Source: Eubacteriales bacterium
GTDB lineage: Bacteria; Bacillota; Clostridia; Oscillospirales; CAG-382
DNA length: 64,000 bases
NCBI GenBank assembly: GCA_045600105.1
Contig: JAZRXG010000007.1
Span: 5,270-69,269, forward strand
Direction: 5' to 3'
Positions 7,252 through 41,265 of this stretch are shown one piece after another. Numbering within the stretch: position 1 is the stretch's first letter; each line of letters opens with the position of its first letter. Below the pieces are notes generated by a model. The model saw only the letters and a list, made by a program, of their open reading frames with translations, was not told where the DNA came from and did no database searches. The position numbers were made by a program, and so were the translations under genes.

Positions 7252-8037
7252 TTACCGCAGCTTTTTGAATATAAAAATATATTCGTGGTCAAAAATGTAA
7301 AAATCACTTGCCAATGCACGATATCTCCAGATAGCTCCTTGATTGGCTTTTCCTCTGGTTCTGTCAAAATCTTTTACGAGAATCGCCTTTAGCAAAAATC
7401 CCTTTTTCATAAACAGATTCATACAGTAAAAACCAAGCGGAACTATTTGACTGTTAGCATATTTATCACCAATAACAACTGCACAATAACGATTTCGCTC
7501 TAAATATTGCGTGGTATTATCAATAACTCTTCCAAAAGATTTTAAAAAAGTATCAAGAGAGTCAGCATTTGATAAATCGTTAGGATTGCTTGAAAATTTT
7601 ATTATGTCCCAATATGGCGGATGAAAAATAACAAATTGATATTTTTTTATACCAATATTGTCAAGTATTTTCTTTATATCGATATTTTGACTATCACCTA
7701 TAAATCCGAGCGTTTTACATTCATCATTGTACTCCAAACGTATTCGTTCAAATGCTTCTTTAACGACATCTTCTTGCAAATCAAAACCTATTGAGTTTCT
7801 TCCCATTCTTTGGGCTTCTATTAATGAAGTGCCGCTTCCCATAAATGGGTCAAGTATCCAATCACCTTTTTTGGTATACCTCTTAAACATTTGCCTTGGC
7901 ACTTGGGGAATAAAATTGCCGTGATAGGAAGCATTGTGTACACCGGAATTTTCTCGATGAAATGACCAAAAAGAATTTGTGAGTATGTCATCGTATTCTT
8001 TCCACTTTTTCGGGTCAATATCATTATACCAAGACAT
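7252..8037 (-). CDS. Amino (N4-C/N6-A) DNA methyltransferase
   Basis: YHGNFIPQ, LDPFMGSGT (motif I), IFHPPYWDII (motif IV variant), DHEYIFIFKK. Confidence 0.85.
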   Translation of the reverse strand: MSWYNDIDPKKWKEYDDILTNSFWSFHRENSGVHNASYHGNFIPQVPRQMFKRYTKKGDWILDPFMGSGTSLIEAQRMGRNSIGFDLQEDVVKEAFERIRLEYNDECKTLGFIGDSQNIDIKKILDNIGIKKYQFVIFHPPYWDIIKFSSNPNDLSNADSLDTFLKSFGRVIDNTTQYLERNRYCAVVIGDKYANSQIVPLGFYCMNLFMKKGFLLKAILVKDFDRTRGKANQGAIWRYRALASDFYIFDHEYIFIFKKLR

Positions 8038-9308
8038 TATTTTTCTTTATCCTCCAATTGATTCAAGCCTTTCATAACAGCAATGCCTATGGCCTTTCCG
8101 AGTCCGCAGGGAACCGCATTTCCTATTTGAACAAGCTGCCATTTTTTTGAGCCTTGGAATATGAAATCATCTGGGAATGACTGCAATGCTGCCAACTCGC
8201 GAGGAGTTAAAACCCTTGGAAGCTTTGGATGAATATTGACACCGCCATGATTTTCTTTTACCGTACAAGATGGTTTATCCCAAGGAGACTTTTTCCAAGC
8301 ATCTGAATAATTTCCATATAAACTCTGTCCTTCAGGCAGCTCTTTTATCTGTTGTATCATTTTTTCGGAATGCTTTGTAAAAATATGATTGATTTGCTTG
8401 TTTTCAGGGATGCTCATAAAACGTTTGATTCCCTCGCCGAGTGTCATATAGTTTTCAGGTGAAACCAATGGTTTCGGATGAAAATTTGTTAATCCATAGC
8501 GATTTCCGATAAAAATAACTCTGTGTCTGATTTGCGGTACGCAATAATCTGCACTGTTCAAAACCGTTACGTTTATACCATATCCGGCTTCTTTATAGTC
8601 CTCAATTATTTTTGCTTCAACCTTCCCATCAAGCATTGTACGGAGACCTTCAACATTTTCCATAACAACGTAGTCTGGTTGTATATGTTTAACGATTTCG
8701 AGCATCTCAAGATATAAACTGTTTCTGGGGTCGGTAATAACTCTATTTCCAGCCATACTGAAACCTTGGCATGGAAATCCGCCAACAATCAGATGAATAT
8801 GCTTGTCTGCAACAGAATTATAAAGCTCTTGTTTGACTTCCGGTTCTCTTATATCACGAGTATGGACTTTTTCGTTAAATCCCTTTTGCTTAATAAAATT
8901 ATATTCATATGTTTGGACTGCCTCTGGCATAATTTCAACGGAAGCGACCGGAGTAAAGCCGGCCATTGTTAATCCGCAACTCAGTCCTCCGGCTCCTGAA
9001 AACAGGTCGATGAAATTATAGCCATTGCGATAATTCGCGGTGGACCATCCGTCATATACCCACTTATCTGAAATGTCAATCCAGTTGACAGTATCACCAG
9101 TTTGCTCTTTGACTATTGTTTCTTTAAAGATGTTATCTTCTTCCGGATCATAATCAGAAATAAGCCATTTTTCATATTCATCTTTTGCAATTCGATAGCA
9201 ATTACTGATTTTATAAGCTTTGAGTTTTCCCGAAGCTATGTGTCTTCTGATGGTTTTAATGCTTTGATTGGACTTTTCCGCAACCTCAGCAATAGAATAA
9301 TACTCCAT
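8037..9308 (-). CDS. C5-cytosine DNA methyltransferase with N-terminal excisionase-like HTH
   Basis: DLFSGAGG, GGFPCQGFS, ENV, QIRHR, RELAALQSFP, GNAV; N-terminal YSIAEVAEKSNQSIKTIRRHIASGKLKA; start chosen by GGAGG spacing. Confidence 0.92.
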   Translation of the reverse strand: MEYYSIAEVAEKSNQSIKTIRRHIASGKLKAYKISNCYRIAKDEYEKWLISDYDPEEDNIFKETIVKEQTGDTVNWIDISDKWVYDGWSTANYRNGYNFIDLFSGAGGLSCGLTMAGFTPVASVEIMPEAVQTYEYNFIKQKGFNEKVHTRDIREPEVKQELYNSVADKHIHLIVGGFPCQGFSMAGNRVITDPRNSLYLEMLEIVKHIQPDYVVMENVEGLRTMLDGKVEAKIIEDYKEAGYGINVTVLNSADYCVPQIRHRVIFIGNRYGLTNFHPKPLVSPENYMTLGEGIKRFMSIPENKQINHIFTKHSEKMIQQIKELPEGQSLYGNYSDAWKKSPWDKPSCTVKENHGGVNIHPKLPRVLTPRELAALQSFPDDFIFQGSKKWQLVQIGNAVPCGLGKAIGIAVMKGLNQLEDKEK

Positions 9309-9397
9309 AATCATACCCTCCAAAAGCGGATGTGTCCATTATACATGCATTTTGTCCAATTGTCAAGAGGCAGTATGCAAATTAATAAGAACAATAT

Positions 9398-9415
9398 CTG
9401 CGGAAGAAGGATTTG
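9398..9415 (-). repeat. 18-bp duplicate of the tRNA-Gln 3' portion (att-like)
   Basis: ctgcggaagaaggatttg is identical to 9729-9746. Confidence 0.85.
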
Positions 9416-9473
9416 CTCTCGCGGCTCGACGCCTGCCCGTTCAAATATTTTTTACCATTGAATCGAATTATCA

Positions 9474-9693
9474 ATGATATATCGCCTGACGGCGATATGA
9501 TATACTTGCTTCGCAAGCATGATATATTTTCGCTCCGCTCAAATATGATATAATATCCGTTCCTTCATATGCCGAAGGCATATATCATCGCACGCAGTGC
9601 GATATCATACCGAAGGGATATCACCCGTTACGGCCCATTCCCCAAAACGGCAAAGCCGTTTCGGGGACCCCTTGGGGGCGGAACGGATATCAT
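9474..9693. repeat. Symmetric multi-hairpin intergenic element (REP/MITE-like or ncRNA)
   Basis: Four ATGATAT then four ATATCAY spacers separating short hairpins; 11-bp inverted repeat 9553-9563/9680-9690. Confidence 0.7.
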
Positions 9694-9725: not shown

Positions 9726-9799
9726 TGGCTGCGGAAGAAGGATTTGAACCCTCACAAACAGAGTCAGAGTCTGTCGTGCTGCCATTACACAATTCCGCA
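9726..9799 (-). tRNA. tRNA-Gln(CTG)
   Basis: TGCGGAATTGTGTAATGGCAGCACGACAGACTCTGACTCTGTTTGTGAGGGTTCAAATCCTTCTTCCGCAGCCA; anticodon CTG, encoded CCA. Confidence 0.95.
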
Positions 9800-9853
9800 A
9801 TTTATTATATTTTTACGCCGATTACATAAAATATAACGACGGGTGAATTCAAG

Positions 9854-9928
9854 TGGTGACCCGTAGGAGAATCGAACTCCTGTCTTCGCCGTGAGAGGGC
9901 GACGTCTTAGCCGCTTGACTAACAGGCC
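9854..9928 (-). tRNA. tRNA-Glu(CTC)
   Basis: GGCCTGTTAGTCAAGCGGCTAAGACGTCGCCCTCTCACGGCGAAGACAGGAGTTCGATTCTCCTACGGGTCACCA; anticodon CTC. Confidence 0.95.
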
Positions 9929-10021: not shown

Positions 10022-11098
10022 ATTCTGCCGAAAGAACCCTACAAACGCATTCCCGTCATACTTTTTTACGCCGCGTTCTCGCTTGCGCTGCTTTTCGCGT
10101 TCTTCAAATGGCTGCTTCCCGTGTTTCTGCCGTTCTTCCTCGCGTGGACGACGGCGCTTTTTCTTCAGCCCGTCGTTTCAAAGCTCGCGTCGTCAAAGAT
10201 GCCGCGGCGTCTCGCGTCGGCGCTGCTCGTTTTTTTCACGGTCTCGCTTCTCGCGCTGCTTTGCTGGTTCGTTCTGTCGCGGCTATACAAGGAGCTTTCG
10301 CTTTTCGCGTCTGCCGCGGGCGACTTTTTCGCGCGGGCGTGGGACGACGAGGAGTACGCTTCACGCATAATTACCGAGATCGACTCCGCGCTCCCGTTTT
10401 TTCATTCGTCCGAATGGCTCGAAAGCGCGTGGAAAAGCCTCGGCGAACGCTTCAACGGCGCTTCCGTCGGGCTGATAACGTCGCTGACGACGCGCATCCT
10501 GCCCATCATCGGCGGCGTTCTGTCGTTTCTCCCCGACGCGATAATGTACGTTTTTGTTTTTTCGCTTTCGTGCTATTATTTCACTTTCGATTTCGATTTT
10601 ATCAACCGTTCGGTCTCGCGTCTGCTGCCGAACGGCGCCAAAAAATTCCTCTCAAACGCCAAAAAAGGGTTCAAGGGCACGCTCGGCGGACTGCTGAAAG
10701 CCTATTTTTTCATCATCCTCATCACGTTCACCGAGCTTTTCATCGCGCTGTCACTCATCGGCGTGCGCTATTCGCTCGTCATCGCGTTCCTCACGTCGCT
10801 CGTTGACATCCTTCCCGTGCTCGGAACGGGGACGGTGCTCATCCCGTGGGGGATATTTACCCTCGTTTTCGGACGGACGTCAAAGGGCATCGCGCTGCTC
10901 GTGACCTACGGCGTCATCACCGTCGTGAGGGAGATCATCGAGCCGAAGATCGTGGGGAAGACGATGGGCATCCATCCGCTTCTGACCCTCGTTTCGATGT
11001 ACGCGGGTCTGCGCTTTTTCGGCGTCATCGGGCTGCTCGCTTTTCCAATGCTCGCGACGTTCGCGAAAAATCTTGTCGTGCGGGGAAGCGAAAAGTGA
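10022..11098 (+). CDS. ytvI: Sporulation integral membrane protein YtvI (AI-2E family); start uncertain
   Basis: LPFFLAW...LQPVV, VDILPVLGTGTVLIPWG, VREIIEPKIVGKTMGIHPLLTLVSMYAG; frame open upstream of GTG 10121 to a GGAGGTG RBS at 10008-10014. Confidence 0.85.
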   Translation: MLPKEPYKRIPVILFYAAFSLALLFAFFKWLLPVFLPFFLAWTTALFLQPVVSKLASSKMPRRLASALLVFFTVSLLALLCWFVLSRLYKELSLFASAAGDFFARAWDDEEYASRIITEIDSALPFFHSSEWLESAWKSLGERFNGASVGLITSLTTRILPIIGGVLSFLPDAIMYVFVFSLSCYYFTFDFDFINRSVSRLLPNGAKKFLSNAKKGFKGTLGGLLKAYFFIILITFTELFIALSLIGVRYSLVIAFLTSLVDILPVLGTGTVLIPWGIFTLVFGRTSKGIALLVTYGVITVVREIIEPKIVGKTMGIHPLLTLVSMYAGLRFFGVIGLLAFPMLATFAKNLVVRGSEK

Positions 11099-11105
11099 TT
11101 TCCAT

Positions 11106-11134
11106 TTGACAAAAACGCCCGGCTGTGGTATTAT
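11106..11134 (+). promoter_or_regulatory. SigA promoter
   Basis: TTGACA-17 nt-TATTAT with TG extension. Confidence 0.7.
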
Positions 11135-11167
11135 CGTATCAACGAAAACGCAAGGACGTGCGACGAC

Positions 11168-11830
11168 ATGGAAAACAAAAAACCGCTTGGAAAAATCAAA
11201 AATTTCATCTGGGATTTCGACGGAACTCTGTTCGACACCTATCCGTATACGATAAACTGCTTCTGCGAAGCGGTGGAGAGGGTGAGCGGAAAACGCCCCG
11301 AATACCTTGAAATATACAAATATATGATGCAGACGATAGGTCACGCCTTCACCGCCTACAAGCAGCTCCTCGGCGATGAGAAGGACGCGGAGATACGTGA
11401 AGCCTACCGTTCCATACGCGTCCCCGGTCCCGGGACCGAGGGCGACCCCTTCCCGTACGCGAAGGAGCTGCTCGAACTCATCTGTGACAGCGGAAAAGCA
11501 AATTTTATGTTCACGCACCGCGTCAACGACGTTTATCCGTTCATGGACCACTGGGACATGAGAAAATATTTCACCCGCATCGTCACGCTCGCCGACGGAG
11601 TCAAGTCCAAGCCGTCGCCCGACGCGATATATCTGCTCATCAACGAATACGGGCTCGATCCCGCCGAGACGGTCATGATAGGCGACAGGGAGATCGACGT
11701 TCTTTCGGGCAAAAACGCGGGCGTGCTGAGCTGCCACGTGACGAACGGACTGCCCTACGACGATTTCGAAACGGACTACCGCGTCGGATCCATGAAAGAC
11801 ATTTACGAAGCGTTGGGCGGAAAGCTATGA
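11168..11830 (+). CDS. HAD-IA family hydrolase
   Basis: WDFDGTLFDT, KPSPD, IGDREID. Confidence 0.9.
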   Translation: MENKKPLGKIKNFIWDFDGTLFDTYPYTINCFCEAVERVSGKRPEYLEIYKYMMQTIGHAFTAYKQLLGDEKDAEIREAYRSIRVPGPGTEGDPFPYAKELLELICDSGKANFMFTHRVNDVYPFMDHWDMRKYFTRIVTLADGVKSKPSPDAIYLLINEYGLDPAETVMIGDREIDVLSGKNAGVLSCHVTNGLPYDDFETDYRVGSMKDIYEALGGKL

Positions 11831-12285
11831 ACAGGATGACGACACTCTGCTATCTCGAAAAAGACGGCAGATACCTGATGCTCCACCGCGTGAAGAAGAA
11901 AAACGACGAGAATCACGACAAATGGATAGGCGTCGGCGGACATTTTGAAGAAGGCGAGTCGCCCGAGGACTGCATGAAGCGCGAGATATCCGAGGAAACG
12001 GGCTTCACGCCGACGAAATGGCGCTGCCGCGGCGTCGTGACGTTCGTGTCCGACGTGTACCCGACCGAAGAAATGCACCTTTTCACCGTGACGGAGTGGA
12101 ACGGAGAGCAGAAAGAGTGCGACGAGGGCGTGCTCGAATGGATAGACAAATCGCGTCTTTTGTCGCTCCCGATGTGGGAGGGCGACAGGATATTTCTGTC
12201 GCTCATCGACTCCGAAGACACGCCGTTTTTCAGGCTTAAGCTCGTTTACGAGGGCGAAAAGCTCGTGGAAAGCATTAAGCTTTAA
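11827..12285 (+). CDS. NUDIX hydrolase (8-oxo-dGTP diphosphatase-like)
   Basis: Nudix box GGHFEEGESPEDCMKREISEETG. Confidence 0.9.
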   Translation: MNRMTTLCYLEKDGRYLMLHRVKKKNDENHDKWIGVGGHFEEGESPEDCMKREISEETGFTPTKWRCRGVVTFVSDVYPTEEMHLFTVTEWNGEQKECDEGVLEWIDKSRLLSLPMWEGDRIFLSLIDSEDTPFFRLKLVYEGEKLVESIKL

Positions 12286-12346
12286 GCAAAGCCTTAAGCC
12301 TTAAGCAAATAGGAAAGGATTTCCGCGGAAAGCGGAAATCCTTTTT
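12270..12346 (+). repeat. TTAAGCY-type heptamer array + hairpin element (terminator)
   Basis: agcattaagctttaagcaaagccttaagccttaagc then aaaggatttccgc-ggaaa-gcggaaatccttttt. Confidence 0.8.
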
Positions 12347-12366
12347 GCATTCAAGTGGACTTTCAA

Positions 12367-12579
12367 TCAGATATCGCTATATGCGTCGTTTATATTCTCG
12401 TAGACGCGATTCCCAGACTCAAGCATTTTTGCAATGATGGCATCTTCCAACTCATCATCAGATACCAGCAAAGCCATTTGAGTTTTCTTATTTGCGATCC
12501 CGTAACCGTATTCGGTATTGGCCAGAACCCAATCTGCTTTATCCGATTCCCATAGATATTTATACTCTTCAATGTTCAT
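12367..12579 (-). CDS. Small acidic hypothetical protein (possible second immunity protein)
   Basis: 70 aa, starts 5 nt after the upstream stop; last gene of the islet operon. Confidence 0.7.
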   Translation of the reverse strand: MNIEEYKYLWESDKADWVLANTEYGYGIANKKTQMALLVSDDELEDAIIAKMLESGNRVYENINDAYSDI

Positions 12580-12584
12580 ACCGA

Positions 12585-12908
12585 TTAATTCTCGTCTTCG
12601 GTGTCAATTTCGTCAGAGATCCCATCGTACATCTTATCACGGCTTTTCATTCGTTCTATCGTCGTCTCTCGGTTGTCCAACTCATAAAGAACGGCTTCAA
12701 TATTATTTGCAGTCAACTTCTCATAACAAGAGATTACTTTTTTGACCCCGAATCTATCGGCACATTCAAAACATAACAAATAATCGTTTTTGTCAATTCT
12801 TGCCTTTATCTCCGAAAATGGGTAGTTACAGTATTCTTTGATTATTTTTACGACAACTGCAAACGACGAATATGATTTAATTTTTAGTCCTACTATAAGA
12901 TTGAACAT
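12585..12908 (-). CDS. Putative immunity protein for the Tox-GHH nuclease
   Basis: 107 aa, TAATG overlap with the toxin stop, acidic C-terminus; function inferred from position. Confidence 0.7.
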   Translation of the reverse strand: MFNLIVGLKIKSYSSFAVVVKIIKEYCNYPFSEIKARIDKNDYLLCFECADRFGVKKVISCYEKLTANNIEAVLYELDNRETTIERMKSRDKMYDGISDEIDTEDEN

Positions 12909-13471
12909 TATTGTTTCCTCCCAAAATCATAAAATGTTGATTGCGAAATCGGTTTGCCAGGAGCAGCATTTTTGAAATTGCCGCCGTGCCATCCGTATAA
13001 GTGCTCATCAAAAGTTACAGGATATATTATTTCTCCTCGATTTGCTAAATGCGGATATTTTGAAGCACTATAAGTATGATGCCCCTGAATGGTTTTTCCA
13101 TTGAATTTTGGTCTCTCACCTCGCGCGATTGTTGCAAGTTGTTCGTCGTTCCAAGGCCGTGTTGTTTTTTGCCCAGAGAGTACCCGCATTTGCTCTGCAT
13201 TCCAAAAGCTGATAACTCCCATTTTTCTTCTTTCTGCAAATCGTTTATCAGAATCGTACAGTTTGAATTCTTCTTTTGTTGCAGTGCGTTTTTCTATTTT
13301 GGCCTTAATCTCTTTGCGCTGTTTTGCGGTTAGAGATTTTGTTCGTGGATGTTTACGAAGATCCAGCCCCTTTGTTCTTGAACGAATCACATCACTGCTT
13401 TTTAAGGCAGATGACAAGCTTTTCCTTGAACCTTCGGTCCCGCCGAACAGTCCGCTTCCGCTCTTACTCAT
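12908..13471 (-). CDS. Tox-GHH (HNH/EndoVII-fold) nuclease toxin without a recognisable delivery domain
   Basis: FWNAEQ...GQKTTRPWNDEQ...IQGHHTYSASKYPHLAN...EHLYGWHGGNFKN; ATG at 13471 after AGGAGG. Confidence 0.85.
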   Translation of the reverse strand: MSKSGSGLFGGTEGSRKSLSSALKSSDVIRSRTKGLDLRKHPRTKSLTAKQRKEIKAKIEKRTATKEEFKLYDSDKRFAERRKMGVISFWNAEQMRVLSGQKTTRPWNDEQLATIARGERPKFNGKTIQGHHTYSASKYPHLANRGEIIYPVTFDEHLYGWHGGNFKNAAPGKPISQSTFYDFGRKQ

Positions 13472-14204
13472 GGCTCTTCCTCCTTTCAAATGCACTTGAC
13501 ATTTGACTTTGGAAAGCCACGATATTGATGCCTTGCGATTTCAGATCGTCAAAGCATTTGTAATTGGCAGAGCCGTATACGATGATGGTGTGCGGCTGAA
13601 GCACACGGATCATTTTGCGCAGACCGCTTTCGAAGCGATCACGGTCCTCAATCTTGCGCGGACTGCCGCCGACCGTGCCGATACATACAATGCTGTTTTT
13701 CGGAATGCCGTCAAAACAATAGGAGAACGTTTCCTCCGTACCCCATCGGACGTTGTTGATGACGGCGATGCCGTTCCTGCCGAGCCAGTAGCCCATCAGA
13801 CGCATGCGGTATGTAGCGTAGATTTTGAGCGGTTCCGGAAAGTCCTGATATGTCGAGAAGTCGGGAGTGATAACCCCGGCAAAATGACAGAGAACAAAGA
13901 GCGCGTGCTCGGAGTCATGCCAGATTCCTCTCGGGCCGTCGAACTTGTAATCATCGATGTAGAAGCAGACGTACGCATCGCACTTGAAGTCACTCCCCGC
14001 AGAGATATTCTTCTTGTAGATCGCTTTCGCTTCTTCCCACGTTACAAGTGCGTGAGGGAGTTCGGTCGCGGTTGTCGGACAGAACGGAATGTCGTGGGGT
14101 GAATAGATCGCTCCGTCCGCCATGTAGGCGTTCCAAATGTCTTTCAACCCCGCTCTTGTGGTATTCATTTTACCACTTTGCGATTGGTAATTCAATAGGA
14201 ACAT
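13464..14204 (-). CDS. DUF4417 domain protein
   Basis: FYIDDYKFD, VITPDFSTYQDFP, INNVRWG, FDGIPKNS, IIVYG; GGAGG RBS. Confidence 0.85.
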   Translation of the reverse strand: MFLLNYQSQSGKMNTTRAGLKDIWNAYMADGAIYSPHDIPFCPTTATELPHALVTWEEAKAIYKKNISAGSDFKCDAYVCFYIDDYKFDGPRGIWHDSEHALFVLCHFAGVITPDFSTYQDFPEPLKIYATYRMRLMGYWLGRNGIAVINNVRWGTEETFSYCFDGIPKNSIVCIGTVGGSPRKIEDRDRFESGLRKMIRVLQPHTIIVYGSANYKCFDDLKSQGINIVAFQSQMSSAFERRKSHE

Positions 14205-14363
14205 TTTTATTTTCCTCCATTATGATAATTTGAGAAACTTTGTTTTCTCGCTTAGCATTATCTCACAATAAAGGAAAGTTAAAAATTTCCGGGTTTTTGA
14301 TAGGCATGCCGTATAAATTGATCAAAGTGGGAACAAACCTGGGTTGAACATATAATTAACATA

Positions 14364-14392
14364 TTGACACAATAGTTAATTTGTGTTATAAT
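14364..14392 (+). promoter_or_regulatory. Consensus SigA promoter with an overlapping inverted repeat (putative operator)
   Basis: TTGACA-17 nt-TATAAT; ACACAA...TTGTGT dyad spans the spacer. Confidence 0.8.
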
Positions 14393-14427
14393 ATCAATGA
14401 ACTACTACAATATAAGGAGTTGTGCAT

Positions 14428-14928
14428 ATGTATGATGAAACGCGCATGGGGAAGAACATCAAAAGAATAAGAAACGAAAAAAACTTAACACAGCAGCAAG
14501 TTGCGAGTGCATCGGGAATACAGAATACTGTAATAAGTGCATTTGAAAACGGAAAGAAGGTGCCGGGACTCATTACGTTGATCAAATTGTCGGAAGCAAT
14601 GAAAGTGTCTTTGGATGAATTGGTTTTCGGGACACCTGCCGACAGGATAATCACGACCGATGAAGAAGCGGAGGTGATTGTTCGCTGTGTATATGAACTG
14701 TGGAAGCGAAATATGATTTCCAAACCTTACGATATAATAAACAATGAATATTTTTCGACTGTGTCTTATGGTCTTGTAAGGTTCGGCTGTGCGTTTGCGA
14801 TAGACAGATTATTACAGCAGTTGAAGGATCATAAAGATAATGAAAGTACGTACTCTATGCCGGAAGAACACATAAAGCAGATATTGGAATCATCCGCAAA
14901 CGAAATCAAAAGGTCGATACAAAAATAA
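14428..14928 (+). CDS. XRE-family HTH regulator with a ~100-aa C-terminal domain of unknown function
   Basis: NIKRIRNEKNLTQQQVASASGIQNTVISAFENGKKVP; ATG at 14428 after AAGGAG. Confidence 0.85.
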   Translation: MYDETRMGKNIKRIRNEKNLTQQQVASASGIQNTVISAFENGKKVPGLITLIKLSEAMKVSLDELVFGTPADRIITTDEEAEVIVRCVYELWKRNMISKPYDIINNEYFSTVSYGLVRFGCAFAIDRLLQQLKDHKDNESTYSMPEEHIKQILESSANEIKRSIQK

Positions 14929-14952
14929 AAGCAAGCTGAAATGCTTGCTTTT
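14927..14952. terminator. Bidirectional terminator at the right edge of the islet
   Basis: aaaagcaagc-tgaaat-gcttgctttt. Confidence 0.75.
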
Positions 14953-14962
14953 ATTACGGCTT

Positions 14963-17080
14963 TTATTTTTTCTTTTTCCTCTTTATTATCGCGGCGCAGA
15001 CTGCTGCTGCGGCGATCACACCGGCGGCGATGGCGGCGTATCCCCAAGCGGGGAAGCCGTCTTTTTTGCTTTCGGCTTCGGAAACGTCTTCCGAAACGGG
15101 CTCGGACACTGTCTCCGATGGCTCTTCGCTGATTTCCTCCGCCTTGGCGACTGTTTTCACTATGACTTTTCTTACCGTTGTCACGCCGTTCGCCGTGATC
15201 TCGTATTCAATCACGTCGTCGCCGAGGTAGTCTTTTTTCGCATAATAGGTGAACGTCTTTGCGTCTGTCGAGAATGTGATCCTGCCGTGAGACGGGCGTG
15301 TTATTATTTTTGCCGAAGCCTGCCAGTCGCCTGCAAGGCACGTCGGGCATATGACTTTTTTGCCTGCTTCGACTTCAAACTCGCTTTCTGCGTCCGCCGA
15401 AAACGGGTCGTCGGGGAGGACGAGAGTACCTTTGATGAACTTGTACGTCGCGTCGTAGAGCCAGCGCATTTTCGAGTCGGACGACCTTGCGGCTCTGCCG
15501 AACACGGCGTCGCCGGCGCCGTTGTAATAGGCGTGCACCGTGTCGGTCATCAGCCCCGTGTTCGACGCCGAGTGCAGGTATTCGATATAATAATCGACGC
15601 GGTGGTCGAAATTCCATATAATGCCCGAGTCGATCTCCATCTCGATGCCGAGCCCGAACTGCTTTGCCGTTTGGTCAAAATCCGCCATCGCTCCCGCGGG
15701 ATCGTCCTGAAGTCCGGCGTCAAACGACACGTTGGGCTGCATCAGCACGGCGTCGAATCCGATCTCGTCGTGGCACTCGATGCCTTTTCCGTGATAATAC
15801 GGGATCATCACGCAAAGCAGGTCTTTTTCGTGCAGAAGCGAGCAGAAATCCTTGGCGTACTGCATTTCATAGGGGTATCTTTCGCCCGTTATGCCCTCGC
15901 TGTTGAAGAAAAATCCCTTGAAAACGAGGTTTTCGTATTTGTTTTCGCTGAATCTCTTTATACATTCGTCAACGAACCACTCGGTGACGGTCAGACAGTC
16001 GTCGTAGGTGGAAATTTTTTCGGCAGCGCCGTCGCCGTTGTAATCACCGAAGATCTTGCCGCTCGTTTTGGGGTAGGGGCAGGTGAGGTAGACAGATATC
16101 TTGTAATCGTCAAGTGAAAGCGCGGACTTCACGTCGTTCGCGGCTTCGTCGAGCGCGCGCAGGTTATAGGTGTCGGAAAAATACATATCGAGCATCAGCT
16201 GCCAGTCCGAATACACGGTAGTGCCGCCCGAAACATTGAGCCCTCCGCCCGACGGGCAGAGCCCCTGGATGATGAGGAACATCACCGAGTCGAACATCGT
16301 GTCGACTATCTGTCCCTTTTTGTCGAGGTAGGCGATGAAGGGAAGAAACGTCTCTTTTTTGTTGTTGACGAGCGTTTCGTCGTTGGGATAGTAGCCCGTG
16401 TGGAAAAGTATGATGTCCCTGTCGTCCCCGAGCGCGTTCCGTTCAAGGTAGCTTTCCTTTGACGGCGTTATTATCGGCGAGTAGTCGGTCGGCGGAACGA
16501 GGGACGTGCCTTTTTTGCCGAAAACCTCGATCTCGTCGATAAAGGTGTTGACCACGACGTCGAAATGTATGGCGACGTAGCGTCCGCAGACAGGCTCGAC
16601 GGGCATATCGTAGGTGATTATCGCGCAGGGTTTTTTCTCGTTGGTCCCGTAAGGCGCCGTGTTTCCGCTTTTTATTTCCGCTTCGGAATAGTTCACGCCG
16701 TCAGCCGAAACGAAAACGGTGACTTTTTCGGGCATCAGCACGCCCGCGGGGTTGTCGCTGATGAAGCGGGCTTTCACCCGGTCGATCTCGCGGTTTTCCC
16801 CGAGGTCGATCTTGACCGTTCTGCCGATGGCGCGGTAATATTTGACGAAAGCGGGATCGCTCCAGCTGTTTCTGCCGTATTTGCCGTCGGTGAGCTTCAC
16901 GCCGTCGTCAACGTCGCGCTCCGCGTAGCTTCCGCCGTTCGCAACATCGGTCTCCACGGTGTACGGTCTGCCGAGAGCAAGGTTTTCCGTTTCTTCGTTT
17001 TTTTCGTTTTCGGCTGCCGCGCCGAACGCGGGCAGCAGCATTGATAACGCAAGCATAATACAGATCATCGCTTTCTTCAT
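14963..17080 (-). CDS. Secreted, C-terminally anchored DUF4855 protein with N-terminal discoidin/F5-8-like and C-terminal Ig-like domains
   Basis: Signal peptide MKKAMICIMLALS; NLALGRPY..KLTDG; MFDSVMFL, QPN, GIEMEID; TM helix + KRKKKK tail. Confidence 0.8.
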   Translation of the reverse strand: MKKAMICIMLALSMLLPAFGAAAENEKNEETENLALGRPYTVETDVANGGSYAERDVDDGVKLTDGKYGRNSWSDPAFVKYYRAIGRTVKIDLGENREIDRVKARFISDNPAGVLMPEKVTVFVSADGVNYSEAEIKSGNTAPYGTNEKKPCAIITYDMPVEPVCGRYVAIHFDVVVNTFIDEIEVFGKKGTSLVPPTDYSPIITPSKESYLERNALGDDRDIILFHTGYYPNDETLVNNKKETFLPFIAYLDKKGQIVDTMFDSVMFLIIQGLCPSGGGLNVSGGTTVYSDWQLMLDMYFSDTYNLRALDEAANDVKSALSLDDYKISVYLTCPYPKTSGKIFGDYNGDGAAEKISTYDDCLTVTEWFVDECIKRFSENKYENLVFKGFFFNSEGITGERYPYEMQYAKDFCSLLHEKDLLCVMIPYYHGKGIECHDEIGFDAVLMQPNVSFDAGLQDDPAGAMADFDQTAKQFGLGIEMEIDSGIIWNFDHRVDYYIEYLHSASNTGLMTDTVHAYYNGAGDAVFGRAARSSDSKMRWLYDATYKFIKGTLVLPDDPFSADAESEFEVEAGKKVICPTCLAGDWQASAKIITRPSHGRITFSTDAKTFTYYAKKDYLGDDVIEYEITANGVTTVRKVIVKTVAKAEEISEEPSETVSEPVSEDVSEAESKKDGFPAWGYAAIAAGVIAAAAVCAAIIKRKKKK

Positions 17081-17154
17081 AAGTCTGCCTCCGATGGATG
17101 GTATACGGATATAATACAGTAATGAGGGGAAAAAGTCAACGAAAAGGATGAAAA

Positions 17155-17352: not shown

Positions 17353-18042
17353 TCATTCGGAAAGGAGCTCGAATTTGTAACCGACGCCCCAGACGGTCTT
17401 GAGCACCCATTTGTCGCTCGCGCCGTCGAGCTTTTCGCGCAGTCTCTTGATGTGGACGTCTACCGTACGGCTGTCGCCGAGGTAATCGAATCCCCAGACC
17501 TTGTCAAGGAGCTGGTCGCGGGTGAAAACTCTGTTGTAGTTTGCCGCGAGGAAATAGATGAGGTCGAGCTCCTTCGGGGGAAGATCAACGGGTTTGCCTT
17601 TGATCTTGAGCTCGTATTTCTGACGCGAAATTTCGAGGTTGTCGAAACGGATGAGCTCTCCGTCGTTGGAATCCTGACGGGAATAACGTCTGAGCACGGC
17701 TTTGATACGCGCGAAAACCTCTTTCATATCAAGGGGCTTCACGATAAAGTCGTCCGCGCCGAGCTCGAGCCCGAGGACCTTGTCGATGGTCTCGCCTTTG
17801 GCGGTTATCATGATTATGGGCTTGGAGGACTGCTCGCGGATCTCGCGGCAGGTCTGCCAGCCGTCTTTTTTGGGCATCATAATGTCGAGCAGCACGAGGT
17901 CGGGCTCGTACATCCTGAACGCGGTTATGCCTTCAACGCCGTCGGACGCGGTCTTCACTTCGTAACCCTCTTTTTCGAGGTACATCCTGAGCAGCTCGCA
18001 GATATTGGTGTCGTCGTCGACTACAAGTATCTTGGTCATCAT
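17353..18042 (-). CDS. OmpR/PhoB-family response regulator (no adjacent kinase)
   Basis: ILVVDDD, LLDIMMP, GADDFIVKP, RTVDVHIKRLREKL, TVWGVGYKF. Confidence 0.95.
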   Translation of the reverse strand: MMTKILVVDDDTNICELLRMYLEKEGYEVKTASDGVEGITAFRMYEPDLVLLDIMMPKKDGWQTCREIREQSSKPIIMITAKGETIDKVLGLELGADDFIVKPLDMKEVFARIKAVLRRYSRQDSNDGELIRFDNLEISRQKYELKIKGKPVDLPPKELDLIYFLAANYNRVFTRDQLLDKVWGFDYLGDSRTVDVHIKRLREKLDGASDKWVLKTVWGVGYKFELLSE

Positions 18043-18311
18043 ATCGTCATTACCTCCGTTTTGTAACGTATTACGCGCGCCGTTAGGCGGCATTAACAAA
18101 TTGAATTTTAACGTGTCTTTTGCTTTCTGACGCTAATATACCACATAAAATCCGCTTTGTCAATACTTTTTTCAAAAATATTTTTCTGATTATAAATTTT
18201 CATTCAATATTAATCGCCAAAAAGTATGTATCAAAGTTTACAACGCCCTAAAAACGCGGCATGACGGAGACGTCACGGAAAGGAGAAACGGAAATATAAA
18301 GCATAAATCTA

Positions 18312-18340
18312 TTGACAAAATATGTGCTTTGTGATAGTAT
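18312..18340 (+). promoter_or_regulatory. SigA promoter of the cpsC/D/B module
   Basis: TTGACA-17 nt-TAGTAT with TG extension. Confidence 0.65.
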
Positions 18341-18430
18341 ACAATCGATAATTAATAGTATTTTGAAACCCGCGTTTTGCGGACGCTTTTCTGCGTATCC
18401 GCGAAACTCACCTGACTGGAGGAAACACAA

Positions 18431-19162
18431 ATGAACTCATCCGATGAAAAAGGAGCGATGTCGATAGACTTCATCGAGCTTCTCAGAGGGCTCTGGGCAC
18501 GTCGAGTCGTAATAATCGTTATCACCGCGGCGTGTGCGCTCATCGGCGCAGTATACGCGTCGTTTTTCATAACACCGACTTATCAGGCTACCGCCAAGAT
18601 GTACGTCGACAACCTCGGCGACAAGAGCCAGAGCGGATATATTTCGACCACCGAGATCTCCGCCGCAAAGAGCCTCGTTTCGACCTACGCGGTCATCGCC
18701 AAAACGAGAGACACGCTTGACGCCGTTAACGAATACGCATGCAGCAGCTTTTCTTATTCCCAGCTTTCCGATATGATAAGCATTTCGTCGGTCAACGACA
18801 CCGAAGTATTTCAGATAACCGTCACCTGCGAGGACGCCAACATCGCCAAGATCGTTGCCAACGCTCTCACCGAGGTGCTCCCCGACAGGATCTCCACCGC
18901 CATGAAGGGCGCAGGCGTCACCACCATCGAAAAGGCGTACACCACGGGCAATAAGGTCGCTCCGAGCGTTTCGAAGTACGCGATCGTTCTCGGCTTGCTC
19001 GGGCTTGTCGTCACCTGCGGCGTGATAGTCGTCATCGACCTTCTTGACGACAAGATCCACGGTGAAGAATACATCAACAACAATTTCAAACATCCGGTGA
19101 TAGCGGTTATCCCCGACCTGTTTGTAAAGAACGCCGGAGGTTCAAAGTACAATGCAAAATAA
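18431..19162 (+). CDS. Polysaccharide co-polymerase / BY-kinase activator (CpsC/YveK/Wzz family)
   Basis: IDFIELLRGLW, ITPTYQATAKMYV, two TM segments, LDDKI..EE...PVIAVIP. Confidence 0.9.
   Translation: MNSSDEKGAMSIDFIELLRGLWARRVVIIVITAACALIGAVYASFFITPTYQATAKMYVDNLGDKSQSGYISTTEISAAKSLVSTYAVIAKTRDTLDAVNEYACSSFSYSQLSDMISISSVNDTEVFQITVTCEDANIAKIVANALTEVLPDRISTAMKGAGVTTIEKAYTTGNKVAPSVSKYAIVLGLLGLVVTCGVIVVIDLLDDKIHGEEYINNNFKHPVIAVIPDLFVKNAGGSKYNAK

Positions 19163-38258: not shown

Positions 38259-41265
<3,007 letters not shown>

Follow-up and report, generated by a model that had tools for sequence, protein, structure and literature searches.

Classical polymorphic toxins consist of a constant N-terminal part joined to variable C-terminal toxins, with a co-varying immunity gene directly downstream, and orphan toxin/immunity cassettes are found among them (Zhang et al. 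2012, PMC3482391). Their secretion or presentation domain is fused to the toxin, as in LXG toxins, which carry an N-terminal LXG domain and are served by WXG100/T7SS genes. S8-PTS, a polymorphic toxin system known from Gram-positive bacteria, has three components, among them a subtilase accessory and toxins in which a BetaH domain accompanies a signal peptide (Li, Tan and Zhang 2022, PMC9424270). In the MuF systems of temperate phages, too, toxin modules come with immunity genes (Jamet et al. 2017, PMC5576092; PMC3482391). In Type IV CBASS, Cap10, a recognizable homologue of the TGT family, is encoded beside CdnD in a conflict locus and holds its N-terminal tail, M(G/S)G(G/S)GG; this Gly/Ser-rich N-terminus enters the barrel active site, and Cap10 acts together with a QueC-like protein, Cap9, that attaches 7-deazaguanine (Wassarman et al., 10.1101/2025.04.06.647259). 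Finally, DUF4417 (PF14386) has been described in ParB_N-DUF4417 fusions that are enriched in phages and carry an N-terminal ParB-CTPase/nuclease domain, with no described toxin partner (10.1101/2025.10.10.680097; PHROG 940).

We analyzed a 64-kb stretch of DNA, referred to here as the window, which contains a small islet with the following features:

12289–12352, no strand: terminator-like palindrome (hairpin 12314–12344), a 13-pair stem followed by a T-run, at the right-hand end of the toxin operon
12367–12579, minus strand: acidic 70-aa protein, pI 4.1, after a 5-nt gap from the 107-aa ORF
12585–12908, minus strand: acidic 107-aa protein, pI 4.9, its start and the stop of the toxin overlapping in TAATG
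12908–13471, minus strand: predicted toxin, 187 aa, Pfam Tox-GHH, with a leader (residues 1–14), a helical pre-toxin region (about 15–100) and a His-Me nuclease core (about 100–175)
13430–13471, minus strand: codons of the 14-residue leader (M-S-K-S-G-S-G-L-F-G-G-T-E-G), as delimited by a logo of 75 proteins
13464–14204, minus strand: DUF4417 protein, 246 aa, Pfam PF14386, with GGAGG 9 nt before the ATG
14355–14398, no strand: divergent promoter region with an imperfect palindrome, from promoter and inverted-repeat searches
14428–14928, plus strand: XRE-family HTH regulator, 166 aa (a GTG start at 14422 is possible), HTH_3, divergent from the toxin operon
14924–14955, no strand: terminator-like hairpin, 13 pairs then a T-run, common to the XRE gene and a convergent 739-aa host gene

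A sequence-only reading of this DNA had described five ORFs in an islet of ~2.6 kb between two terminators, with an XRE regulator pointing away from four coupled genes. All five fell where that reading had placed them, the regulator is a divergent plus-strand ORF, and the junctions it listed, an 8-nt DUF4417/toxin overlap (ATGAGTAA), the shared TAATG and the 5-nt gap, were all read from the sequence. An alternative GTG start for the toxin, 8 codons upstream of the ATG, would give a protein of 195 aa. Pfam searches with all five proteins returned DUF4417, Tox-GHH and HTH_3, and no family for the 107-aa or the 70-aa protein.

Comparison with the nearest relative, genome G011 of the same genus, showed that the islet is a true insertion. 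Window positions 10100–12265 (78% identity) and 15003–17113 (76%) match DNA that is contiguous in G011, with ~79 bp between the two matches, so that the site there is clean and empty, and the inserted DNA extends from about 12266 to 15002 (2.74 kb). In 10 further genomes of the genus, a DNA search found nothing that matched the islet portion of the query. The GC content is 0.37–0.42 at 12500–13499 and 0.38–0.39 at 14000–14999, against 0.53–0.57 in the flanks; the body of the DUF4417 gene, at 0.52, is unlike the low-GC rest of the islet. The palindrome at 12289–12352 is a short repeat, query positions 2172–2252 matching 8 further places in the source genome at 78–100% identity. That genome (2.1 Mb, 95.7% complete) contains one DUF4417 gene, one Tox-GHH gene and one leader-bearing ORF, which is the toxin described here. 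Within the class the cassette is patchy, being present in 35 of 300 genomes and 30 of 178 genera.

The toxin gene product matched Tox-GHH (PF15636) with E=7.5e-12 and 45.5 bits (cut-off 25), and its sequence displays the W-x-x-E, G-H-H and [DE]-H motifs given for this family (PMC3482391). Residues H131, H132, E156, H157 and H162 were invariant in an alignment of 41 relatives. In Foldseek searches at E<=1e-3 its AF2 model (pLDDT 80.4) matched 7 chains, all of them teneurins, which carry Tox-GHH domains (E 2e-4). The protein is thus predicted to be a small Tox-GHH His-Me DNase. The short form has 196 relatives of 102–328 aa; of the 41 that were aligned, nearly all bear the leader. The N-terminus of the model is poorly ordered, residues 1–10 having a pLDDT of 58 and residues 1–12 no regular structure, and the protein has neither a signal peptide nor a trafficking domain known to Pfam.

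The sequence-only reading had proposed that DUF4417 is a dedicated partner of the toxin, and that the genes directly downstream of DUF4417 in other genomes might encode interchangeable toxin domains. A survey of genome contigs gave 190 pattern matches, of which 161 encoded a DUF4417 relative, and the best 80 of these were taken. In 74 of the 80 loci a leader ORF began no more than ~20 nt from the stop codon of DUF4417; it was also found by eye in three others, one of them frameshifted and another cut by the contig end, and two loci could not be assessed, ending within DUF4417. In all, 77 of 78 assessable DUF4417 loci had a leader-bearing, tightly coupled gene directly downstream, the loci being gene-called with a custom ORF picker, drawn mostly from MAG contigs, and in related cases not independent of one another. 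The leader has the consensus M-S-K-[GS]-x-S-x-L-[FY]-x-G-T-x-G, and the information content of a logo made from 75 proteins falls after position 14. Identity between classes was 54% over residues 1–16; beyond the leader the 75 proteins fell into 16 classes unrelated by BLAST. Pfam identified LHH (1.7e-27), Ntox50 (1.9e-26), YwqJ-deaminase (5.7e-7), Ntox37 (2.8e-7) and Tox-GHH among these classes and, below its cut-off, Prok-JAB/Toxin-JAB1 and PBECR1. The survey therefore bore out the proposal, with at least 16 unrelated toxin classes and, as described below, immunity-like genes that co-vary with them.

The DUF4417 proteins of the 80 loci are tightly conserved (57–81% identity). On a tree of 75 of them the toxin class required 48 changes, where the minimum possible is 15 and shuffled labels required 52.5 +/- 1.8, with 5 of 200 shuffles giving 48 or fewer. 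We conclude that toxin modules have been swapped almost freely behind a conserved DUF4417. The two parts also occur as natural fusions; P0373 joins DUF4417 to Ntox37 and P0389 joins it to a Ribonuclease domain, the two proteins being near-identical to about residue 215 and divergent beyond. Additional leader ORFs were found further downstream in six loci.

We also asked the reverse question of GHH toxins, using 80 metagenome loci that comprised 32 leader forms and 48 leaderless forms. DUF4417 was adjacent in 30 of the 30 leader forms with at least 750 nt upstream and in none of the 48 leaderless forms, in which similarity begins only at about residue 27. The leaderless proteins are LXG, PT-HINT or other long forms (among 9 long ones scanned, LXG 3 and PT-HINT 2). 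As a rule, then, leader and DUF4417 adjacency go together in the sequences compared. The sequence-only reading had named a truncated orphan tip of a longer RHS/LXG toxin as a refutation, and these results bear on the possibility that the 187-aa protein is such a remnant of an LXG, RHS or PT-HINT toxin, with DUF4417 a chance neighbor. The module from about residue 27 onward is indeed common to LXG and PT-HINT toxins, and orphan tips are frequent where polymorphic toxins are encoded (PMC3482391). Against this, the toxin start codon overlaps the DUF4417 stop, the leader is tied to DUF4417 as just described, and a longer GHH or LXG gene, into which a tip could recombine, was not found in the genome. 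We rejected this explanation, to which we give almost no weight; the short form, with its conserved leader, constitutes a separate family. Together with the coupling in the genome-contig survey and the natural fusions, the GHH comparison upheld the view of DUF4417 as a dedicated toxin partner.

The ORF following the toxin was present in 67 of the 75 loci and formed 20 clusters, none of them common to two toxin classes. These proteins had a median length of 110 aa and a median pI of 4.36, the toxins having a pI of 9.4; none belongs to a named immunity family. Their strict co-variation with toxin class marks them as immunity-like. In the window this position is occupied by the 107-aa protein. 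Its homologues (22–57% identity) lie directly after GHH toxins in most of the 80 metagenome loci and in one genome-contig locus, and they accompany GHH toxins encoded next to DUF4417 as well as those of the LXG or PT-HINT type. The 107-aa protein is therefore predicted to be the cognate immunity protein of the GHH toxin. The 70-aa gene proved to be of another kind. It had been taken for a further partner of the GHH toxin, a misreading, as its homologues pair with JAB-like toxins; three of them (60–64% identity) lie directly after JAB-like leader toxins, and a fourth (66%) lies further downstream in its locus. We predict that, as an orphan gene, it confers immunity against a JAB-like leader-toxin class that is absent here.

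The XRE regulator matched HTH_3 in Pfam with E about 4.7e-16 and 59 bits (cut-off 23), and relatives with 29–36% identity lie divergently upstream of DUF4417 in four other loci. Between the XRE gene and the toxin operon we found a plus-strand promoter, TTGACA-17-TATAAT, at 14364–14392 (12/12, with TG) and a minus-strand promoter, TTGATA-17-TATTGT, at 14397–14369 (9/12). The same region contains an inverted repeat (14355–14372 and 14381–14398, 18 nt, 72% complementary). This palindrome is a candidate XRE operator, through which the divergent XRE protein would act as a repressor controlling the toxin operon.

The DUF4417 protein matched PF14386 with E=2.8e-42 and 144.7 bits (cut-off 28.9) over profile positions 19–181 of 183. 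Among 1714 relatives of comparable length, the best 120 show 66–100% identity. Its AF2 model (pLDDT 93.4) is an alpha/beta barrel, with the conserved motifs at the C-terminal ends of strands and near-invariant D85, D115 and S117 at strand ends. When the model was compared with 48,161 chains by VIA-align, the top four all belonged to the TGT superfamily: 6fv5_A (QTRT2; Z 10.2, rmsd 3.4, 186 aligned), 1iq8_A (ArcTGT; 9.9), 7ui4_A (DpdA; 8.8) and 3unt_A (TGT; 8.7). The next family reached Z 7.5, and Cap10-CdnD gave 6.7. In BFVD, phage "queuine tRNA-ribosyltransferases" ranked 4, 5 and 7 after three DUF4417 homologues, as weak matches (E 6e-3 to 2e-2). Foldseek against the PDB returned nothing at E<=1e-3, listing generic TIM barrels and EAL domains; Pfam gave no TGT (PF01702) match, and HHalign, comparing a 75-row DUF4417 profile with 30 Tgt proteins from bacteria of the phylum, returned a probability of 0.04. 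At 246 aa the protein is too short to contain the C-terminal Zn subdomain of Tgt (336–390 aa). The modeled barrel appears closest to TGT/DpdA by fold alone, sequence comparison being negative. A complex of DUF4417 and toxin, as the sequence-only reading had envisaged, scored 0.36 against 0.00 for the best control, a weak pass, with contact agreement of at least 45% and partner pLDDT of at least 73; one of three runs scored 0.06. In calibration, 58 of 80 solved complexes and 2 of 110 mismatched pairs attained this mark; at scores of 0.60 or below, only 7 of the 80 complexes did so, along with both mismatches.

We conclude, with a probability of about 0.72, that the islet was inserted by horizontal transfer and represents, in complete form, a polymorphic toxin-immunity family with three components, in which translation of the toxin is coupled to that of DUF4417. 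Comparison of the loci showed, at the level of sequence, a constant part made up of DUF4417 and the leader, a variable part that is a swappable toxin, and a co-varying immunity gene. DUF4417, previously of unknown function, is the constant partner in this toxin family, which appears to be new, no description of it having been found.

As DUF4417 is also found in phages, we considered whether the islet might be a decayed phage fragment, in which DUF4417 and the His-Me nuclease are a stranded pair of packaging or replication accessories with no toxin role. The domain occurs in 498 phage records, the window's protein matches PHROG 940 (labelled "nuclease") at 1.3e-41, and 5 of 10 long forms scanned were ParB_N-DUF4417 fusions, 2 of these below the Pfam cut-off, a type reported as phage-enriched (10.1101/2025.10.10.680097). 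In Streptococcus phage A25 the gene directly after DUF4417 encodes a protein of 127 aa whose N-terminus is related and whose C-terminus is His-rich, and the small terminase gene comes next. However, among 30 phage records listed, the phage proteins are at most 33.5% identical to that of the window, and the subfamily patterns found no relatives in 2.9 million viral contigs. The islet contains no other phage gene, its empty site is clean, and the cassette lies outside any prophage; the 80 loci already suggest that intact cassettes occur in many non-prophage contexts. A packaging pair would also leave the deaminase, RNase, JAB and Ntox partners and the strictly co-varying acidic genes unexplained. 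We regard a phage fragment as very improbable.

A more serious alternative is that the toxin never leaves the cell. The locus would then be an intracellular abortive-infection module or a tripartite toxin-antitoxin module, with the small acidic protein as antitoxin; DUF4417 would be a sensor or activator that holds the N-terminal tail of the toxin and frees or activates it on phage infection, by analogy with Cap10-CdnD and chaperone-addicted toxin-antitoxin systems, and the trigger would be set by XRE or, in other loci, by an ImmA/IrrE peptidase. The neighborhoods of DUF4417 resemble defense islands. Among 127 proteins scanned, the window's XRE and 126 upstream neighbors, HTH_3 was the commonest family (21), alongside Peptidase_M78 (17), ThsA_Macro (11), ThsB_TIR (9), the ABC-3C components CTD11 (6), MC2 (3), CTD6 (3) and MC7 (2), and AAA_21/AbiEii (2). 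Further out, a random 119 of 143 flanking genes included no recurrent secretion, conjugation or phage-structural family (integrase 2, MobA 1), and the source genome, at 95.7% completeness, gave no WXG100 or LXG match, so that neither secretion machinery in cis nor T7SS markers in the genome were seen. The cassette is self-contained and patchy, and its nearest mechanistic analogue, a TGT-like protein holding the N-terminus of its partner, is an anti-phage system (10.1101/2025.04.06.647259).

Other observations argue against an intracellular module. DUF4417, the toxin and the two small proteins matched no family of PADLOC-DB v2, and XRE matched only its generic HTH/control-protein models. Exported LXG (T7SS) and PT-HINT toxins use the same GHH module and the same immunity family. 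Phages show a comparable arrangement: in mycobacteriophage JoshKayV the protein after gp2 (DUF4417) is gp3, an ADP-ribosyltransferase (7.4e-21) whose N-terminus is Gly/Ser-rich, and a 101-aa gene comes next. Annotations of other phages place the gp3-type domain in fusions with minor capsid or capsid maturation protease proteins, and the equivalent of the toxin domain there alternates with virion-packaging scaffolds. The loci have accumulated orphans, both immunity genes and leader-toxin cassettes, which is unexpected for a self-contained abortive-infection module and fits toxins arriving from other cells. For this reason we lean, by a little, toward a toxin that acts on other cells, and consider confinement to the producing cell possible but rather unlikely.

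For the polymorphic toxin family we propose that DUF4417 takes the role that the N-terminal scaffolds (LXG, PT-HINT, MuF) play in classical toxins. By analogy with Cap10-CdnD, DUF4417 would recognize the leader, the extended N-terminal tail of the toxin probably entering a pocket at the C-terminal face of the TGT-like barrel. Such recognition would lead to the toxin being loaded, activated or conjugated, and DUF4417 itself may be the trafficking element.

The islet thus resembles the classical polymorphic toxins in its division into constant, variable and immunity parts and, with LXG/T7SS and PT-HINT toxins, has its GHH module and immunity family in common. It differs in that the fused secretion or presentation domain of those systems is replaced by a separate, cytoplasmic-looking barrel of 246 aa and a 14-residue leader, joined only in some relatives; it has neither a recognizable trafficking domain nor an export apparatus, and LXG is absent from the toxin, as are LXG and WXG100/T7SS genes from the genome search. 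In the text of PMC3482391 available to us, DUF4417 is not among the trafficking modes given and "transglycosylase" has 0 occurrences. S8-PTS shares the number of components, but here DUF4417 stands in place of the subtilase and a short leader in place of the signal peptide and BetaH domain. MuF toxins are linked to phages, as is the actinophage ADP-ribosyltransferase that comes after DUF4417, whereas the islet has no MuF domain, lies in no prophage and belongs to a subfamily not found in viral contigs. In contrast to the ParB_N fusions, with which it has PF14386 in common, the DUF4417 of the window stands alone and is followed by a leader toxin, as in nearly all loci of its subfamily. The closest mechanistic likeness is to Cap10-CdnD; in contrast to Cap10, the TGT likeness of DUF4417 is at the level of fold only, no QueC-like gene accompanies the cassette, the leader motif differs from the CdnD tail, and the partner is a toxin with its own immunity gene.

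The islet comprises an XRE regulator gene and, divergent from it, four genes on the minus strand; three of the five products were named by Pfam:

14428-14928, plus strand, XRE-type HTH regulator (E=4.7e-16)
13464-14204, minus strand, DUF4417 protein (E=2.8e-42)
12908-13471, minus strand, Tox-GHH toxin (E=7.5e-12)

The 107-aa and 70-aa proteins encoded after the toxin matched no Pfam family, and PADLOC recognised none of the four operon proteins. Among the PHROGs, the DUF4417 protein matched phrog_8680 and the C-terminal half of phrog_940, with the label 'nuclease'. On re-reading of the sequence, the five ORFs, the gene overlaps and the two hairpins described in the sequence-only reading were all borne out. 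GC content was low across the islet, the DUF4417 body excepted. Comparison with G011, a genome of the same genus with an empty site, indicates that the islet is an insertion: the sequences matching the left flank (78% identity) and right flank (76%) lie next to each other there, separated by about 79 bp versus 2.74 kb in the window. The islet DNA was unmatched in all other genomes of the genus that were searched. Compared by eye with the empty site, its ends showed no direct repeats or target-site duplication, and there was neither an integrase gene nor a tRNA gene at the junction; tRNA-Gln(CTG) and tRNA-Glu(CTC), at 9726-9928 on the minus strand, lie 2.3 kb from the islet and off the junction. 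Among the sequencing runs listed there was no RNA run containing the sampled words, and nine runs contained only 5-9% of them.

Several features of the surrounding sequence were also observed. The terminator-like palindrome at 12289-12352, downstream of the 70-aa gene, is one copy of a short REP-like intergenic repeat, which has eight more copies (78-100% identity) on other contigs of the host genome and three short matches in G011. The ORF at 11827-12285 may, by its motif, encode a Nudix protein. Low-GC stretches at 8000-9500 and 18000-18500 (0.38-0.40 versus about 0.54) may be further inserted islets; minus-strand ORFs 7252-8037 and 8037-9323 fall in the first of them.

The possibility, raised in the sequence-only reading, that the 187-aa toxin is a truncated orphan tip of a longer toxin was checked and rejected. 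A word-indexed search gave 196 relatives of 102-328 aa, mostly 175-200 aa long, and the motif M-S-K-x-x-S-G-L-F-x-G-T-x-G opens nearly all of the 41 that were aligned; we call this Gly/Ser-rich N-terminus of 14 residues the leader. The His-Me residues H131, H132, E156, H157 and H162 were invariant in the same alignment. In the AF2 model (pLDDT 80.4), residues 1-12 lack regular structure (pLDDT 58 for block 1-10) and are followed by three helices, at about residues 13-99, and a beta-beta-alpha core. Foldseek returned seven chains at E<=1e-3, all from teneurins, which carry a Tox-GHH domain, and ranked the colicin E7/E9 DNases next with weak scores.

Restricted to lengths of 135-431 aa, the search counted 1714 members of the close DUF4417 subfamily at E<=1e-3; identity was 66-100% for the best 120, and about 80 positions were invariant among 16 sequences of 66-84% identity. 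We surveyed the genes that follow DUF4417 by a pattern scan with one genome per species. Of the 161 relatives that it found, we used the 80 best loci (57-81% identity), which by record title stem almost all from MAGs of gut or rumen Clostridia. In 74 of the 80, a leader ORF begins no more than about 20 nt from the DUF4417 stop codon. For the remaining six, it is present in L011, present and then frameshifted in L041, and truncated by the contig end after five codons in L045; L061 and L078 end inside DUF4417 and were left out, and L056 is the sole exception, with a leaderless NADAR-domain gene (2.6e-48) after DUF4417. A leader-bearing gene thus followed DUF4417 at 77 of 78 assessable loci from the best 80 of 161 relatives. 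The leader logo reads M1, S2, K3, [G/S]4, S6, [G/H/Y]7, L8, [F/Y]9, G11, T12 and G14, its information drops to background past position 14, and in six-frame translation the 2.1-Mb host genome contains the motif once.

Past residue 22, the 75 leader proteins sorted into 16 classes that BLAST could not relate to one another. Pfam named LHH (1.7e-27), Ntox50 (1.9e-26), YwqJ-like deaminase (5.7e-7 and 1.1e-4), Ntox37 (2.8e-7) and Tox-GHH; Prok-JAB/Toxin-JAB1 and PBECR1 matched below curated cut-offs only, and at least seven of the 16 classes have no Pfam name. When toxin class was mapped on a maximum-likelihood tree built from the 75 DUF4417 proteins, 48 changes were required (minimum possible 15), and shuffled class labels gave 52.5 +/- 1.8 changes, with 5 of 200 shuffles at 48 or fewer. 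Because the observed number is near the shuffled level, toxin modules are read as swapped almost freely behind a conserved DUF4417. The interchangeable toxin domains for which the sequence-only reading had proposed such a survey were found. Two loci carry, upstream of DUF4417, a 168-aa leader-bearing protein of a separate type (L056:1785-2291, L041:4837-5343). Frameshifted leader toxins, a GHH toxin in L015:6734-7239 and a JAB-like one in L041:6732-7106, could reflect decay or assembly error.

An ORF lay within 160 nt after the toxin in 67 of 75 cases. Its products formed 20 clusters, none common to two toxin classes, and were small and acidic (median 110 aa; median pI 4.36, 61 of 67 below 5.5); the toxins are basic (median pI 9.4). 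Pfam named almost none of 50 such proteins. Homologues of the 107-aa protein (pI 4.9) are encoded directly 3' of the GHH toxin in L015 and likewise directly after GHH toxins in most of 80 metagenome loci, regardless of the N-terminal context of the toxin; by this gene association, the 107-aa protein is the predicted cognate immunity protein of the GHH toxin. The 70-aa protein (pI 4.1) has homologues of 60-64% identity encoded directly after JAB-like leader toxins in three loci (L008, L055, L076), and in L007 a fourth homologue (66%) sits farther downstream. The 70-aa gene is therefore best read as an orphan immunity gene for JAB-like toxins, so that of the two small genes which had been linked to the DUF4417-toxin pair, the first keeps its predicted role as immunity gene and the second belongs with another toxin class. 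Additional leader ORFs further downstream in six loci are read as orphan toxin cassettes.

We then approached the association from the toxin side, with 134 metagenome relatives of the GHH toxin, the best 80 of which were used. The leader stands at the start of 32 of these toxins. DUF4417 ends at the toxin start in all 30 leader-type toxins with at least 750 nt upstream, and in a 31st its end is visible at the contig edge. The other 48 matched from about residue 27 only, in long or 5'-open frames, and DUF4417 was adjacent to none of them; nine long forms scanned carried LXG (three), PT-HINT (two, one also with PT-TG) or no named N-terminal domain (four). We concluded from this split that the same toxin-immunity module rides either a classical export scaffold or the leader with DUF4417, never both. 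The earlier suggestion that DUF4417 is the dedicated partner of the toxin was thus upheld in both directions (77/78 forward; 30/30 versus 0/48 reverse), and comparison of the loci shows that DUF4417, leader and toxin belong together, that the toxin part is exchangeable and that the next gene encodes a putative immunity protein. Prediction of the DUF4417-toxin complex gave a score of 0.36 (runs 0.36, 0.40 and 0.06) and 0.00 for the best of three controls, with at least 45% of contacts in agreement between runs and partner pLDDT of at least 73. Of 80 solved complexes, 58 reached the mark used for such predictions, as did 2 of 110 mismatched pairs; at scores of 0.60 or less only 7 of the 80 did, along with both mismatches. 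The model lends weak support to the pairing.

The AF2 model of DUF4417 (75-row alignment; pLDDT 93.4, pTM 0.88) has strands alternating with helices. Residues conserved family-wide (D85, D115, S117, P114, G145, G166, P204, Y210 and G211) lie at or just past the C-terminal ends of strands, which in barrel enzymes form the ligand-binding side. With VIA-align against 48,161 representative chains, the top four matches belonged to the tRNA-guanine transglycosylase (TGT) superfamily: QTRT2 (Z 10.2, rmsd 3.4, 186 residues aligned), archaeosine TGT (9.9), the DNA preQ0 insertase DpdA (8.8) and bacterial TGT (8.7). The family ranked next reached 7.5, and the complex of Cap10 and CdnD, a type IV CBASS pair, 6.7. 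In BFVD, three viral DUF4417 homologues came first, and phage 'queuine tRNA-ribosyltransferases' held ranks 4, 5 and 7 with weak E-values. Foldseek against the PDB found nothing at E<=1e-3, its weak matches being generic TIM and EAL barrels; when the DUF4417 profile was aligned by HHalign to 30 Tgt proteins of the phylum, the probability was 0.04; the ESM Atlas, which holds no model of the DUF4417 protein, gave no usable match; and a profile search of PDB sequences returned only spurious designed 'Pizza' repeats. Since Foldseek, HHalign and the Atlas gave no support, we describe the modelled DUF4417 as closest in fold to TGT and DpdA without assigning it to that superfamily. A cysteine peptidase, considered for the C42 and H96 invariant in the close subfamily, was rejected because the two residues are not kept across the whole family and the model folds as a barrel. 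The ordinary TGT gene of the host lies in the same window (38292-39368, minus strand, G000:C7:43561-44637; PF01702 E=7.7e-157), and its product is unrelated in sequence to DUF4417.

We propose that DUF4417 takes the place of the classical N-terminal scaffold of polymorphic toxins and would recognise the leader. In type IV CBASS, as described in the available text of 10.1101/2025.04.06.647259, the active site of the TGT-family protein Cap10 holds a Gly/Ser-rich N-terminal extension of CdnD, M(G/S)G(G/S)GG; the same text reports that the CdnD tail bears a 7-deazaguanine added by the QueC-like Cap9, and its authors propose transfer to an unknown target. A QueC-like gene is present there, whereas the islet cassette has none, and plain docking of the leader is therefore the conservative reading. 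A bolder one, which we consider improbable, is that DUF4417 is a TGT-like transglycosylase turned to protein: the leader would enter its base-binding pocket and be coupled covalently to a nucleobase or directly to DNA or RNA. The toxin would then reach a target cell together with nucleic acid that a phage packages or other mobile DNA carries; alternatively, foreign DNA would be the place where it is armed. If true, protein-nucleic-acid conjugation would be a mode of toxin trafficking or activation common to the cassettes of gut Clostridia and left-end genes of actinophages.

An exhaustive profile-free search gave 2238 DUF4417-related proteins at E<=1e-3. Among the best 150, two are toxin fusions, P0373 (DUF4417 with Ntox37) and P0389 (DUF4417 with a barnase-type ribonuclease), which are near-identical to about residue 215 and divergent beyond a Gly-rich junction. 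A search for longer homologues gave two longer proteins only, neither with an extra Pfam domain, and ParB_N preceded DUF4417 in five of ten long forms scanned, two of these below the cut-off. DUF4417 occurs in 498 phage records, at no more than 33.5% identity to the islet protein among the 30 matches listed; a pattern scan of 2.9 million viral contigs found no relative of the islet's own subfamily. At the left genome end of Mycobacterium phage JoshKayV (L200:661-2566), gene 2 encodes DUF4417, annotated 'nuclease', gene 3 an ADP-ribosyltransferase (7.4e-21) whose N-terminus is a Gly/Ser-rich tract of about 75 residues, and a 101-aa gene follows. This toxin domain occurs in 120 phage records, including Microbacterium, Arthrobacter and prophage records in which it is annotated within a minor capsid protein or capsid maturation protease. 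The gene after DUF4417 in Streptococcus phage A25 encodes a 127-aa protein whose N-terminus is related, and the small terminase gene comes next. Another long form, P0378 (306 aa), has sigma-70 region 2 (4.9e-6) fused C-terminally behind DUF4417, with no obvious link to toxins.

The XRE protein is a probable repressor of both divergent promoters, with the palindrome at 14355-14398 as its likely operator. Among 127 proteins scanned (the window's XRE and 126 upstream neighbours), 21 matched HTH_3 and 17 the ImmA/IrrE-type M78 peptidase, which suggests derepression triggered by damage or infection. In 12-13 of the 80 loci (L007:96-1719 and, e.g., L012, L016, L018, L038, L057, L072 and L080), DUF4417 has upstream of it a divergent Thoeris-like pair of about 364 aa (ThsA Macro) and 171 aa (ThsB TIR), and ABC-3C components (about 410 and 548 aa) occupy this position in 7-8 others.

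As to where the toxin acts, we lean toward action between cells because orphan immunity genes and orphan toxin cassettes accumulate, because T7SS toxins share the toxin-immunity module, and because the phage parallels use virion-packaging scaffolds. An intracellular abortive-infection or toxin-antitoxin module would accord with the Thoeris (ThsA_Macro 11, ThsB_TIR 9 of the 127 proteins) and ABC-3C genes adjoining many cassettes, with the lack of an export gene in cis, with the mostly housekeeping character of 119 distant flanking genes scanned (two integrases, one MobA) and with the patchy occurrence of the cassettes (35 of 300 genomes, 30 of 178 genera of the class). Weighing these, we place action between cells against the intracellular module at roughly 55:30. 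The host genome (2.1 Mb, 51 contigs, 52% GC, 95.7% complete) holds one DUF4417, one Tox-GHH and one leader-type ORF, and no match to the T7SS markers WXG100 or LXG.

The islet family looks like a new class of polymorphic toxin system, whose constant module is itself new: a separate enzyme-like barrel and a 14-residue leader would stand in for a fused secretion domain. DUF4417, a family whose thousands of members occur in bacteria of gut and rumen and in phages, would gain a concrete role. The leader rule is an easy marker by which new families of toxins and immunity proteins can be mined, and virtually none of the immunity clusters has a Pfam name. Searches of the main text of papers turned up no link of DUF4417 (PF14386) to toxins and no function for the family; the sole substantive mention found, in the available text of 10.1101/2025.10.10.680097, concerns ParB-CTPase fusions of unknown function in phages. 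If the likeness to Cap10-CdnD exceeds a shared fold, a TGT-like grip on protein N-termini would be a wider theme of microbial conflict than one CBASS subtype. For Tox-GHH, the main text of PMC3482391 lists trafficking by T2SS, T6SS, T7SS (LXG) and TcdB/TcaC, and the word 'transglycosylase' is absent from it. The nearest published concept, judged from the available text of PMC9424270, is the three-component S8-PTS.
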